DNA of 50,872 bases from assembly GCA_034722435.1 (NCBI GenBank), contig JAYENX010000005.1:1-50872 (forward strand). The letters are read 5' to 3'. The DNA is from Nanobdellota archaeon. GTDB lineage: Archaea; Nanobdellota; Nanobdellia; Woesearchaeales; JAHWHD01. The translations under genes and the position numbers were made by a program. Within the stretch, counting starts at the first letter, position 1. Each line of letters starts with the position of its first letter. This document shows, one piece after another, positions 20,733 to 25,500 of this stretch. Under the pieces are notes generated by a model, which made no database searches, was not told the DNA's origin, and saw only the letters and a list, made by a program, of their open reading frames with translations.

Positions 20733-21716
20733 ATGGATATACTAAAATCATATACTGGAACATTGTTGGGATCTGCTATTGGAGATGCAATGGGTGCTCC
20801 AACTGAAGGTCTTTCACCAAAAGAAATTTTTGATAGATATGGTAATGTTACATCTTATATCCAAGCAACTCCTGATAGAAGAACTTCTGGCTTAACGCCT
20901 GGCCAATATACTGACGATACTGAAATGACTATTGCAATGGCTGAATCAATTTTGGCTTGTAAAGGACTTGATGCTGAAGATCTCGCAAAACATTTCATTA
21001 AATGGTATAACTCTCCAGGTTTTTCAAGGTCTCGTGGTCAGACTTGTGAAAGGGCTGGCCTAGCTCTTAGCAGAGGTAGATCTTGGTACAGTTCAGGGAT
21101 AGTTGGTAAGGCAGGTTGCGGAACAGCAATGCGTGCACATCCTTTGGGACTTATACATGACGAATATTCTTTAGACCAACTTACGCTTGACGTTTATGAC
21201 GCTTCAATAATTACTCATAAAGATACGAGAGCAGTAGCAGGTACAGCAGCTGTCGCTCTTTCTATTATTTACTTAAGAGCACATAAAGACACAAGCGATC
21301 TTATTGAATTTCTTACTTACTTTTTACCTGTTGTTGAAAATTATGCTGATAAAAATTTAAATACTAATCCTCAAGACCCTTTATCAAAACGAATTTCAAG
21401 AATTCCTATCTATCTTGCAAAGTCAAACCCATTAATTGCTGTTAAAGATATGGGTTTTACAGGTTACGTTAACCACGTAGTTCCTACGGCTATATTCCAT
21501 TTTCTTAAACATCCTGATAATTTTCTTGACGCTGTTGCTTCAGCTGTTAACGCAGGGGGGGATGCGGATTCAGTGGCTTGCATCACTGGTGCATTATCAG
21601 GCGCATACTTGGGAGAAGATTCAATCCCTCAACATCTATTGACTGCTCTTGAAGAAAAAGATAAAATTAAAAACTTAGGAATTAATCTATTGGACATGGT
21701 GAACAATCATGACTAA
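20733..21716 (+). CDS. ADP-ribosylglycohydrolase (DraG/ARH family)
   Basis: AIGDAMG, YTDDTEM, GCGTAMR, SIITH, GGDADSVA..TGALSGAY. Confidence 0.93.
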   Translation: MDILKSYTGTLLGSAIGDAMGAPTEGLSPKEIFDRYGNVTSYIQATPDRRTSGLTPGQYTDDTEMTIAMAESILACKGLDAEDLAKHFIKWYNSPGFSRSRGQTCERAGLALSRGRSWYSSGIVGKAGCGTAMRAHPLGLIHDEYSLDQLTLDVYDASIITHKDTRAVAGTAAVALSIIYLRAHKDTSDLIEFLTYFLPVVENYADKNLNTNPQDPLSKRISRIPIYLAKSNPLIAVKDMGFTGYVNHVVPTAIFHFLKHPDNFLDAVASAVNAGGDADSVACITGALSGAYLGEDSIPQHLLTALEEKDKIKNLGINLLDMVNNHD

Positions 21717-22545
21717 TTTATACCATTTATTGAAAAAATCATCTGAAAGAGAACTTCATTCATATGAAGGTGCTTTAGTTGGTGCATTACTTGGTTTTCA
21801 AATGGGTACAGGTACTCGAGATTTCTACCATTCGTTCAAGGGTAATTCTGTAAAAGAAAAACCTCAACACCTTTTAGACTTTTCAGAATCAATTGCATTT
21901 GACCAAACTGTAAATATTAATTCTGATGATTCACTAATGTTCGCACTTAACTCAGTACCATTGGGCTTAGTGCATAATTTAGACACGTTAGACAGTTTAA
22001 CTCAAAACCTTTACGATTCTAATTCCGATAATCCTCAAGCAGTTACAGGCGCTGCAGCAGTTGTAGCATCTATTATTTACGCTAAAAGTTACCATAATAA
22101 ATCTAATAGTAACAAAATAATTGACTTTCTTGTAGATTACACTAAAAGTGTTGAATCCTACATTGCAAACAAAACAGGTTCAAAAGATCATCATATTTCA
22201 ACAACTATAGATGGCTTTAGACAATCACTTAACGGCTCTGTCTCAGATGTTTTAAAAGGATTAAAAGATTCTAAAGCTTTAATTCCTATTTACTTTTATT
22301 TGAGAAATCCTTTTTCATTTGATATAGCGATGAACTATGCAAAACATTATGGAAGTGATGATTCTGATACTGTGACCGCTCTAACTGGTGCAATCGCAGG
22401 AGCACAAGAAGGAATTTTTAATTTTATTATGCAGACTATGAAATTAGATCCTCAAGAATTAAAAAAAGCCAGAGATCTTGCACAAAAATTATTTTTAAAA
22501 CATGCAAACCCTCAGTTTAAGGATGTTTCAGAAGTTGCAAATTAA
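21709..22545 (+). CDS. Degenerate ADP-ribosylglycohydrolase-like protein
   Basis: N-terminal YEGALVGALLG and C-terminal GSDDSDTVTALTGAIAGA are ARH-like; GD and TDD metal motifs not in place. Confidence 0.7.
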   Translation: MTNLYHLLKKSSERELHSYEGALVGALLGFQMGTGTRDFYHSFKGNSVKEKPQHLLDFSESIAFDQTVNINSDDSLMFALNSVPLGLVHNLDTLDSLTQNLYDSNSDNPQAVTGAAAVVASIIYAKSYHNKSNSNKIIDFLVDYTKSVESYIANKTGSKDHHISTTIDGFRQSLNGSVSDVLKGLKDSKALIPIYFYLRNPFSFDIAMNYAKHYGSDDSDTVTALTGAIAGAQEGIFNFIMQTMKLDPQELKKARDLAQKLFLKHANPQFKDVSEVAN

Positions 22546-25500
22546 CATTTTATCTCTTCTTTTATTTTAACAACGTTCTCTATAATGTTTGCAGTCGGTT
22601 GTATACCTATATGTTGTATCTGCTGACTGACTAATACAGAACTTCCTACAGATATTTCTTTATACTCTTTAGCAATTTCAATAACTCTTTTGAAATCAAC
22701 AGGTCTTCCCCCTTCTGCAAAATCTGTTATGAGATCTGTTTTAGAATTTGGATGTATCAATTTTAGATTCGATTCTTCTGTTATTAGCTTATCTAAAGCA
22801 ACATCCTTTTTAAATGTTTTAATAATTTCTTCTAAATTATTAACTGGCTGATTATCGGATAATTGAACCACTAGTTGTTCTATGCCTACCCCTATAAGCC
22901 CAGACTCTTTAGGTTTATAGATTCCTTCTTGTTGGAATATCTTCTTTAATAATCTTATTTGTTCTGCAATAAACTCTTTTGCAAGTTCTTGGTCGTTTGG
23001 CGAAAGTTTACTAACTATGTTATCCATTTGTCCTTCAAACCCTTGTTCTGTTCTATATAGATGAGTTGTATCTAAACTTAGTTGTCTTTGATTTCTTATG
23101 GTTACATCTATGCCAGTTATTTCATTATTTGCTCCATAACTTCCATCACTCTGTACTCCGTATACGCATCCACCACTACACAATCTTAAGAAAAATGTGT
23201 TACCATAATCTTCGCTTCCCGCAGGTCTTTGATCTAATTGAAGTTTCACATCATTACCATATATTTCTTGCAATTTCTGTTCCAGACTAGGAATAATTGC
23301 CCTTAGAGTATTTTCACTTTGTAAAACGCCTGACTCGCTTCTTAGTAAGAAATCAAAATCCCCTGGCATTCCTTGGCTAGATGGAACATACGTGTGCGAA
23401 GCTGATGAACCCGTTGACCAAACTTCCGCAGTTGCAAATGCTGTACTTAATGTTTGATGTATTTTTGATTCTAAATCACTGACTCGTCCCTTACTAGCTT
23501 CAGTCAAAGTAACTGTTGAAAGCAAAGCACCAGATTCTTTAATAGGTGCCGATTTTATAATTTCTTTTTCAACTTGAACCTCTGCTCCTAATTCTTTATT
23601 AATCTCATTTTCTAAAACATTCATAATTTCTGGATTCGCATCTTGATAATATAACAATTCAATCCTTTTTTTGTCTGGATTATATTGTTCAATTCTCAGA
23701 ACAGGATTATCACTTTCAATATCTTCAACAGCTAACATTATTTTATTACGTACATCTAATATTATCCGTACTACACCATCCTTGGCCATACTTGCATCGA
23801 ACTCTAATCCTATCATCGGAAAACCGAGAAGTTCTTGATCGCCTTGCTTAATTTTCATATTGATTCCTTCTTGTCTAAACTCATATCCAGGTATTTGTAT
23901 GTTTCCATTTAATAATTTATCAAGAACTTTAGTTTTTAATTCAGATCTAATATTTTCCCCTACTAATATTCCTTTAGCATCTTCAAACGTTAGTTCATAA
24001 CTTGCTTCTTCAACTTGACCTTCTTTAATCATTGTTGGAACAAGCTTTCCTGCTTTTACAGATGAAATACTAAATTCTATTAGTTTCATTGCAGATGAAT
24101 CACTCATGGAAATTTTTGTTAAACTTCTTACTCTTCCAACACCGCCCCCTATTGGAATTCCATCATCAGTGGCTGTTTTATACACCTCCTCTAATAATTT
24201 ATTAAAATCTCCAAACTCGGCTATTAAATTTTGAACATCTTGTTCTCCAATATCTTTAATGTTATGCCTCGTAAATAAAGTATTAACCATTGCTACTTCT
24301 GCATTTACAGGATCAACAATATTTGATTGAAGATTTTGTTTTCCATTAATTAAACTTGTATCCAACATATCTTGATTTACTTGTCCGGTATTATCTTTTA
24401 CTAACTTAATTTCTTTAATCATGTCAAAGTCAATTAGTCCTTTAAAGTTTAATTCTCTATCTTGATATTTTTTAACTTGGCCAGGTGTTACATATCCTAC
24501 AACATTCTCAGGATTATAATCTTCAATTACAATTACTACTCCTACTTGATTATCTAATAAATTTTCAAGGGCGAACTTTTCAGCAACCTCATCAGAAATA
24601 GATGATGACATAAATACAGTATCTTCAGGGTCTTGTTGTACGTGCTCTTCAAAAGCTGCTCTCTCGCTACCTGCTTCAGCTCCTGCAATTGATTGAGCTT
24701 TTGCAATTCGTTGATCTACGAATCTCGAAATAATCTCAGGATTCGTAATACCTGTACCTATAAACGCTCTTGATGTTATAACGCCTTGATCAACTAATGT
24801 CTGCAATTCATTTAATGTTAGTCTCATACCTCTATACAATGTTTTTGGTTTTCTATATGTTAAATCTTGATTCATACCAAGCATCACATTATTTACAAGA
24901 CCGGCAGCACTTTCATCATCAAGATTTTTTATATTGTCAATTAATCCAGGATTAGCTTCTAACACTTTAACTTGTGATTCAATATCTAAATCTCTTAAAA
25001 TAGTAAACAATCTGTTGGCATTGGTAAGGTCTGTTGTATATAATCTCATACTTAAAATACTTAATTTTTGTACTGCCAAAATTTTTTCATCGATTTTTGT
25101 CCCTTTACCTTGTAATCTGTCCATAATATTTAATTTATTCTTTTCTTTTTCTAATTCTTCCAGCATGAAATTAAGCAAGGTAAACCTGCTACTTCCTGAG
25201 ATGTCTTCACCAACAATGAAATCAGGATGTTCAACTTTTTGTTGGGCCTGATAAGCTTCATAAGCCGCCTGCGTTTCAGCAGTTACAGGCACACCTCCTG
25301 CTCTTATCGCAATATGATTCACTGTTAACTCTTCATCTTTTCCTAGTAAAGTAACTATTCTTAAATCTGAAGGGATATCCCAGAGCTCTTCTCTTGTTTC
25401 AAAAATCTGTCCTTCTCCAATCATTCCTTTAAAATTGTCTGCAAGGAACGGTTTGAAACTATCATCAGGATTTTCTATGAACTTTGCCAATTTTCTCAAT

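Follow-up and report, generated by a model that had tools for sequence, protein, structure and literature searches.

Does a giant secreted protein of an archaeon carry an ADP-ribosyltransferase (ART), and do the ADP-ribosylglycohydrolase (ARH) genes lying against its gene encode the matching erasers? The question is raised by a stretch of DNA of 50,872 nucleotides (contig JAYENX010000005.1 of the Nanobdellota archaeon assembly GCA_034722435.1), which was analysed as a whole and is called the window in the following. Its gene G3 (22542..38825, minus strand) encodes a protein of 5,427 amino acids with TPR motifs, a weak DEAD/ResIII match, an ART-like segment and a C-terminal Pol-beta nucleotidyltransferase (NTase) motif. 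Two ARH genes on the opposite strand, ARH1 and ARH2, run towards G3 and end on its stop codon. The original prediction saw in this arrangement an ART with an arginine-serine-glutamate (R-S-E) motif set, accompanied by two enzymes providing immunity to it as in bacterial toxin systems. We found an ART-like segment inside G3 and an apparently intact ARH next to the gene, and it appears plausible that the locus represents an archaeal variant of the ART/ARH toxin-immunity systems, in which the transferase activity and the pairing are both putative.

The ART-like segment of G3 comprises residues 4652-4788 (24462..24872, minus strand) and aligns to profiles of Alt-type ARTs. The profile PHROG 802, annotated as 'Alt-like RNA polymerase ADP-ribosyltransferase', matched residues 4661-4788 (positions 85-212 of the fragment P0005) with 26.3 bits and an E-value of 5.5e-6, counted against 38,880 PHROG profiles. 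The match spans profile positions 472-566, which make up the catalytic core. Run against the whole genome, the same profile gave a single match (24462-24845, E 8.5e-6), and its ART part was matched in none of 60 relatives belonging to the same order (~75 Mb). The place in G3 where an ART had been proposed is backed by this sole match in the genome, whereas no Pfam ART model was significant there. In one relative (locus L041, G041:C7:23579-24061) an open reading frame (ORF) of 3882 amino acids weakly matched the non-catalytic N-terminal part of the Alt PHROG (positions 302-456, E 0.0076).

The neighbours of the segment in a search based on features of the ESM language model included PF03496 clusters (20% of members) and Mod_ADP_RT clusters. 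A homologue search with T4 Alt gave only near-identical Alt proteins, therefore diverse Alt-type ART domains were gathered from phage records and IMG/VR, resulting in sets of 12 and then 77 sequences. Comparison of the G3 segment with Alt-type ARTs by hhalign yielded an E-value of 4e-4 and a probability of 34%. Our own hidden Markov models (HMMs) of Alt gave 17.8 and 19.0 bits, the higher value being obtained with the 77-sequence HMM, and G3 was the top hit genome-wide (E 0.0075). The match between NarE and the segment was weak and non-significant (E 0.1-0.5), and no match below E 2 was obtained when 50,697 phage records were searched with the segment by tblastn. From these comparisons we consider it likely that the segment is truly homologous to ARTs, and regard the ART call as moderately supported. 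The T4 Alt-type ARTs are, as far as profile alignments can tell, the closest detectable relatives of this strongly diverged domain.

The motif triple LYRG/FMSSS/QDRE, on which the original prediction was based, was found in G3 where it had been placed. With a loose definition of the triple, shuffling of G3 gives an expectation of 0.02 occurrences, and three ORFs in the genome match it. The stricter canonical R...STS...[QE]xE regular expression matches, by chance, a gene for a B12-binding radical-SAM protein (L271, G000:C36:29556-30896), which makes this gene a useful control against ART calls made from motifs only. Since such chance matches exist, the motifs alone are weak evidence and it is the PHROG profile match that carries the ART call.

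Alignment with the Alt family identified the arginine of the putative active site. The stretch TLYRG...FIGTGI of G3 aligned without a gap to TLYRS...FVSTSL of Alt, with a spacing of 25 residues between the Arg and the second motif in both G3 and T4 Alt. The motif LYRG occupies G3 residues 4663-4666 (24828..24839, minus strand), and its Arg4665 aligned with the invariant Arg of Alt (TLYRS/TLYRG) in the 12-sequence as well as in the 77-sequence set. In view of the ungapped alignment the Arg named in the original prediction was the correct one. Beyond a variable insert, VGVVIVIED and VGYVTPG of G3 match IGWVITGAD and VNVVLPG of Alt, which form the next two strands.

The two ARH-family genes named in the original prediction proved to be of unequal quality. 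ARH1 (20733..21716, plus strand) encodes a protein of 327 residues of the MJ1187 type, without a signal peptide. It matched PF03747 from end to end (1-287 of 287 positions, 240.1 bits, E 5e-71). The residues of the di-metal site are kept (GDAMG...E25, T60-D61-D62-T63 and GGDADS with D277 and D279), and E25, T60-D61-D62-T63, D277 and D279 are invariant among the six closest relatives. By these sequence criteria ARH1 is catalytically intact. Its best solved relative is MJ1187 (PDB 1T5J, E 7e-38 over the full length), followed by DraG (7e-22), Tri1 (6DRE, 1e-21) and Lmo0067, an immunity protein of Listeria (8ZA7, 5e-15), and then by ARH3. Orthology to Tri1 (NF041672) and to DraG (TIGR02662) was rejected: the equivalog cut-offs are 490 bits for the former and 337 bits for the latter, whereas ARH1 scored 97.6 and 107.8 bits, respectively.

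ARH2 (21709..22545, plus strand), likewise without a signal peptide, scored 26.1 bits in Pfam, just under the cut-off of 26.2. It scored 88.9 bits with the profile of the ARH1 clade, at positions 132-325 only, and is therefore a genuine ARH paralogue, as had been predicted. Its N-terminal third is remodelled: GFQMG..R stands for GDAxG..E, and about 40 residues replace about 100 profile positions including T-D-D-T, whereas D-S-D-T is kept. One half of the active site, comprising the Glu and TDDT, is missing, which the original prediction had not distinguished, and ARH2 is probably a pseudo-enzyme. In the genome, which is 94.5% complete, ARH matches were confined to ARH1 and ARH2.

The ARH operon begins with a gene for a protein of 220 amino acids (20069..20731, plus strand), which has a TATA-like box ~25 nt upstream and belongs to no family in Pfam, NCBIfam or the PHROGs. 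A similarity of this protein to phage portal or head-tail connector proteins, indicated by ESM-feature neighbours at 0.95, had a low shared-feature count and is probably unreliable. The operon ends on the stop codon of G3: the convergent stops of ARH2 and G3 share the tetranucleotide TTAA (22542..22545), an overlap of 4 nt. Both the common end and the convergent, non-operonic orientation had been described correctly in the original prediction. The ART-like segment lies ~2 kb into G3 from this stop-codon end.

The N-terminus of G3 is a Sec-type signal peptide (MKNKEVVGMRTISLLLIIILVMSTVSFA ahead of AEG), therefore the protein is predicted to be exported. The reading that we favour, although tentatively and at somewhat less than an even chance, is that the locus is an archaeal variant of the bacterial ART-toxin/ARH-immunity design, with G3 as a secreted multi-enzyme giant and ARH1 as the eraser. 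After export by way of the signal peptide the ART domain would modify a target inside a cell, which could be the host, a neighbour, or the producer before export. An ART depends on intracellular NAD+, therefore its site of action must be either another cell or, ahead of export, the producer. In the cytoplasm of the producer ARH1 would strip stray ADP-ribose, thereby providing enzymatic self-protection, and ARH2, the 220-amino-acid protein, or both could be non-enzymatic binders. Bacterial precedents and the intact ARH next door speak for this logic; delivery of the ART domain into another cell and its functional pairing with ARH1 are putative.

A considerable number of results weigh against this reading, and those on the catalytic residues come from the same alignments that support homology. 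At the site homologous to F-V-S-T-S-L of Alt, G3 has FIGTGI (residues 4688-4693; 24747..24764, minus strand), with Gly in place of both serines, so that the S-T-S site reads G-T-G in the hhalign alignment and in those made with our own HMMs. FMSSS (4738-4742; 24600..24614, minus strand), which the original prediction took for the S-T-S motif, is 48 residues past FIGTGI, in the insert that separates the STS helix from the strand after it, a region also variable among the Alt family; only the non-significant NarE alignment favours it. The segment contains no [QE]-x-E. The third predicted motif, QDRE (4788-4791; 24453..24464, minus strand), is Q-x-x-E and falls outside every significant alignment, as the alignment with the Alt profile ends at Q4788, just short of the Glu motif. 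Two candidates for the glutamate can be named. D-R-E (E4791), preceded by VGYVTPG, could replace E-x-E given a one-residue gap, whereas MAFFT pairs E4805 of I-K-E in KEIKLVKD (KEIKLV, 24399..24416, minus strand) with the invariant Glu of EVILPRG in Alt. No match in G3 was obtained with a sub-profile restricted to Alt's ExE half. Judged by these alignments the Arg of the triad is present, the Ser is absent at the homologous site and the Glu is ambiguous; of the R-S-E set originally proposed, the Arg was retained and the Ser was not. Because of the G-T-G and the ambiguous equivalent of ExE the catalytic competence of the segment is doubtful, and any ART activity would have to proceed despite the glycines, with either E4791 or E4805 as the putative catalytic residue.

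Structure prediction and further searches belong, except for a comparison by VIA-align, to the same side of the balance. A single-sequence AlphaFold2 model of the segment had a predicted local distance difference test (pLDDT) score of 38.7 and was unusable. When the Alt alignment was supplied the pLDDT rose to 55, and confidence was confined to the strand with the Arg, the helix after it, the GTG strand and the VGVVIVIED strand. Foldseek with this model returned nothing at E<=0.001. VIA-align with the same model returned 46 of 48,161 chains at Z>=2, nearly all of them ARTs (HopU1 5.7, SpvB 5.3, Tre1 4.9). The model took its geometry from the ART alignment, therefore the VIA-align result is consistent with an ART fold but is not independent proof of it. 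Pfam and NCBIfam searches with the C-terminal 1000 amino acids of G3 revealed no ART family, and PF03496 and PF18760, searched directly in the genome, gave no match. A weak DXP_redisom_C match in the same C-terminal part was judged spurious. A sequence search of the PDB with the ART segment found nothing.

The architecture of the locus is also less simple than a terminal toxin domain facing its immunity gene. A Pol-beta NTase signature, GSSASH..GDFDFLL (GS..DFD), was found at G3 residues 5139-5161, within the last ~290 residues (22545-23480), and the C-terminus showed a weak MTPAP-like match in Pfam (E 0.025). It is therefore an NTase, not the ART, that forms the terminal cargo on the side of the ARH cassette. 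The ART-like segment is internal, with ~636 residues of G3, the NTase included, on its C-terminal side. The gene directly touching G3 is the degenerate ARH2 rather than ARH1, and ARH1 itself scores far under the Tri1 and DraG equivalog cut-offs. The last codons of both G3 and the neighbouring giant gene G2 specify Cys followed by stop (TGT TAA).

The distribution of the two partners was compared next to these local features. With the ART segment as query, phmmer found among 1.84 billion representative proteins the query itself and two further matches (an fn3 array and a repeat protein), which were rejected as tandem-repeat artefacts. The segment was not found in the 60 relatives, and a word-based search among proteins of 2984-9498 amino acids revealed no homologue of the C-terminal 1000 amino acids of G3. 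The ART domain is an orphan, with no homologues in which conservation of its putative catalytic residues could be seen, and this counts among the points against the toxin-immunity reading.

ARH1-like genes, in contrast to the orphan segment, occur in 10 of 61 genomes including that of the window (9 of the 60 relatives), with identities of <=35%; an unpublished genome of the same genus (G001) is among the carriers. Eight of the ARH loci of the relatives are ordinary neighbourhoods of small genes. The locus L032 (G009:C5, 2674-13826), from another family of the same order, comprises genes for a kinase-bearing protein of 1734 amino acids, a protein of 237 amino acids and a HEAT-ARH fusion of 536 amino acids. 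The fusion gene is met, with a 4-nt stop overlap, by the gene for a convergent protein of >1138 amino acids containing a Metallophos domain, in which no ART was detectable within the 1138 residues available. The two closest ARH1 homologues found anywhere, both 50% identical, are on Logan contigs of SRR20820740 (9.7 kb) and SRR7614767 (15.7 kb). At one of these loci a HEAT/kinase/ABC1 protein is followed by the ARH and a 208-amino-acid gene and then by a convergent protein of at least 1371 amino acids; at the other, the ARH and a 274-amino-acid gene are followed by a convergent protein of 4084 amino acids. Both show 4-nt stop overlaps, as does the ARH2/G3 junction.

Two other loci are recorded here as side observations. 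In a Woesearchaeota metagenome-assembled genome (JACPCC010000008.1; L146, 2199-9907) the gene for an ARH sharing 33% identity with ARH1 shows translational coupling to that for a PHP-family phosphoesterase, and the pair converges on a 127-amino-acid gene and on a long ORF (at least 1867 amino acids) without a Pfam match. Near a 40%-identical ARH at L042 (7206-11867) lies the gene for a protein with HEAT repeats and a length of at least 1554 amino acids. An 88-residue stretch of this protein is 46.6% identical to residues 2573-2657 of the product of G1, another giant gene of the window, and looks like a G1 linker repeat; its stop codon is abutted by a plus-strand gene for 164 amino acids.

Members of the MJ1187-type ARH family, to which ARH1 belongs, are frequently found as single genes in Methanothrix, Methanoperedens, ANME-2 and Anaerolineae, and are mostly not accompanied by giants or ARTs. 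None of 163 ARH loci contained an Alt-like ART. What is conserved is the linkage of an ARH cassette to a giant gene, not of an ARH to an ART of the G3 type. In classical toxin-immunity pairs the two partners are expected to co-vary; here the eraser is stable and the cargo of the giant is variable, which is the opposite. The phylogenomic co-occurrence expected in the original prediction received no support from this comparison. These points complete the evidence to be set against an ART/ARH pair.

G3 is one of three giant genes in the window, all on the minus strand, in a genome of 1.30 Mb (G000) of which the window is contig C5. The window has a G+C content of ~33% and contains archaeal markers: L10/P0 with the RL10P insert, a YGR210-like GTPase and DUF7121. 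G1 (3..7982, minus strand) encodes HEAT repeats, and G2 (10409..19357, minus strand) three Hanks kinases, ABC1, GT2, HD and GGDEF domains and nucleotidyltransferase domains of the DUF294 and GlnD types. No ART was detectable in G2, in agreement with a caveat of the original prediction. A small helix-turn-helix gene precedes G1 and another one precedes G2; the gene preceding G3 (38822-39586) has no Pfam match. Between the giants there are short cassettes of plus-strand genes. The one convergent on G2 consists of a metallophosphoesterase gene (8820-9698) and a 235-amino-acid gene of unknown function (9705-10412), the one convergent on G3 of the 220-amino-acid unknown (20069-20731), ARH1 (20733-21716) and ARH2 (21709-22545). 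At 10409-10412 the stop of the 235-amino-acid gene overlaps that of G2 in a TTAA, just as seen for ARH2 and G3. The motifs DxH, GD, GNHE and GHAH suggest that the metallophosphoesterase is a generic or CpdA-like enzyme and not of the PPP type. There are 13 ORFs of at least 1500 amino acids in the genome (the giant-bearing contigs include C4, C21, C22, C24, C25, C28, C31, C40 and C45), and among them only G2 and G3 are met by a convergent gene whose stop overlaps theirs by 4 nt. On C4 a radical-SAM gene converges on the giant, with a gap of 6 nt.

The conserved layout suits an explanation that we place on the unlikely side of possible, in which islands of giant genes are accompanied by the ARH pair as a feature conserved in the lineage, with no tie to the G3 segment, which would be either a relic devoid of catalysis or a module for binding. 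The task of ARH1 would in that case be to undo ADP-ribosylation by ARTs of the host, of viruses or of competitors, or to process ADP-ribose derivatives, and the hydrolase genes clustered between giants (metallophosphoesterase, ARH, PHP) would make up an accessory toolkit of a general kind. The G-T-G at the S-T-S site and the lack of a clean ExE would be expected of a relic, and the ARH-giant layout persists at 50% ARH identity while the ART segment and the C-terminal 1000 amino acids of G3 occur in no other protein. The convergent large protein of G009 has a Metallophos domain and no detected ART, the Woesearchaeota contig pairs its ARH with a PHP phosphoesterase beside a large gene, and HEAT and Metallophos domains are found in the small genes as well as within giants. 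On the other hand, the genome's only ART-like segment and its only ARH genes lie within ~2.3 kb of each other, and the segment has kept the Arg as well as the general order of strands. The giants beside the 50%-identical ARHs, which are unread, may hold other ART families.

It seems decidedly unlikely to us that G3 contains no ART whatsoever, that is, that profile match and motifs reflect chance similarity in a 5,427-residue protein rich in low-complexity sequence and that the ARHs are ordinary housekeeping enzymes of the MJ1187 type. The scores are modest, it is true (26 bits with the PHROG, 19 bits and a genome-wide E of 0.0075 with our own HMM, 34% in hhalign), the convincing alignment is limited to ~60 residues, the Pfam ART models are silent, and motif triples do arise by chance, as the radical-SAM gene matching the canonical expression demonstrates. 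But the E-value of 5.5e-6 was reached against 38,880 profiles, the match is single in the genome and its ART part is found in 0 of 60 relatives, the aligned stretch holds the invariant Arg of the family at the exact spacing to the STS position, and an independent language-model feature search also led to ART clusters. A further explanation, in our opinion very unlikely, regards ART and ARHs as an endogenous regulatory system that works reversibly like DraT/DraG, controlling for instance G3 or a partner before or after export. ARH1 scores nearly equally against DraG (7e-22) and Tri1 (1e-21), and the convergent, overlapping transcription units could couple expression. G3 is exported, however, whereas the ARHs are cytoplasmic; there is no DraT-like gene or nitrogenase context, and the architecture of G3 is more like that of effector arrays than of regulators.

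The toxin-immunity reading of G3 and ARH1 can be extended to a more general proposal, which is unlikely as it stands. The giants of this DPANN lineage would be arrays of NTP- or NAD-dependent 'writers' (kinases, NTases, GGDEF-like domains, ART) delivered into a host, and each would be guarded by a convergent, TTAA-interlocked cassette of cytoplasmic eraser hydrolases: the ARH pair for G3, the metallophosphoesterase with the unknown gene for G2, and PHP or HEAT-ARH in relatives. G2, with its kinases, NTases and GGDEF domain, and the convergent metallophosphoesterase may, by analogy only, represent a second writer/eraser pairing, and the Woesearchaeota ARH+PHP cassette beside a large gene would fit such a wider pattern. 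If true, this would constitute modular enzymatic self-immunity and the first such system in archaea.

How DPANN archaea with genomes of ~1 Mb manipulate their hosts is an open question, for which giant proteins are obvious candidates, with their cargo almost uncharted. An ART domain in such a giant, with erasers in the neighbourhood, would carry the bacterial logic of toxin and enzymatic immunity into archaeal symbionts. The locus is experimentally tractable, as it requires a domain of ~200 residues and a hydrolase of 327 residues, and small hydrolase genes interlocked by their stops with giants offer a concrete signal for comparative genomics. If the ART is dead, the locus would demonstrate a different reason for the presence of ARH cassettes beside giants, which would also be informative.

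The design of an ART toxin opposed by an ARH immunity protein is already established for bacteria. Imm-ARG (ADP-ribosylglycohydrolase) immunity is reported to be strictly associated with R-S-E ART toxins of polymorphic-toxin systems (PMC3482391), and Tre1/Tri1 of Serratia proteamaculans (PDB 6DRE/6DRH) are a worked example of an ART/ARH pair in which enzymatic reversal serves as immunity (PMC8120803). The G3 locus resembles Imm-ARG systems, Tre1/Tri1 and the Listeria ART-ARH pair (8ZA7) in combining a large secreted protein that contains an ART-like domain of the R-S-E clade with an adjoining, cytoplasmic and intact ARH. It differs from these systems in its archaeal (DPANN-type) host, in the internal position of the ART, which is followed by 636 residues and an NTase, and in the convergent genes with overlapping stops instead of same-strand genes. 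In addition, the ARH is of the MJ1187 type and under the Tri1 cut-off, the S-T-S site is G-T-G, and co-variation of ART and ARH was not seen. Bxa of Bacteroides stercoris has two immunity proteins, the enzymatic ARH BAH and the binder Bsi (PMC11699363). The operon at the G3 locus similarly holds an intact ARH and candidate binders, namely the degenerate ARH2 and the 220-amino-acid unknown, but these have no sequence relation to Bsi, and the role of an ARH pseudo-enzyme as binder is putative.

With T4 Alt (PHROG 802; PF03496 + PF26846), G3 shares TLYR(G/S), the 25-residue spacing to F-x-[SG]-T-[SG], the variable insert and the next two strands. In Alt S-T-S and E-x-E are invariant in 12 of 12 aligned sequences, whereas G3 has G-T-G and D-R-E or I-K-E, and Alt is a phage protein packaged in the head, unlike the secreted G3. 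MJ1187 of Methanocaldococcus jannaschii, an uncharacterised archaeal ARH, is of the same family as ARH1. Genes of its type are mostly lone, whereas ARH1 and its nearest relatives sit fixed against a giant gene, and the ARH1 locus has an active-type as well as a degenerate ARH copy. The 'Archaeovorins' of Omnitrophota, which exemplify the giant multi-enzyme proteins of prokaryotes with small genomes and an episymbiotic or predatory life, are, like G3, very long, secreted proteins with strung enzymatic domains, from ultra-small, host-dependent cells. The preprint on the giant genes of Omnitrophota (bioRxiv 10.1101/2023.11.21.568195) concerns bacteria, contains 0 occurrences of ADP-ribosylation and describes no flanking eraser cassette, and we found no paper joining DPANN, giant proteins and ADP-ribosyltransferase. 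Compared with these systems, the archaeal host, the internal ART-like domain in a protein of 5,427 amino acids, the convergent, TTAA-interlocked cassette and the combination of an active with a degenerate ARH appear to be new.

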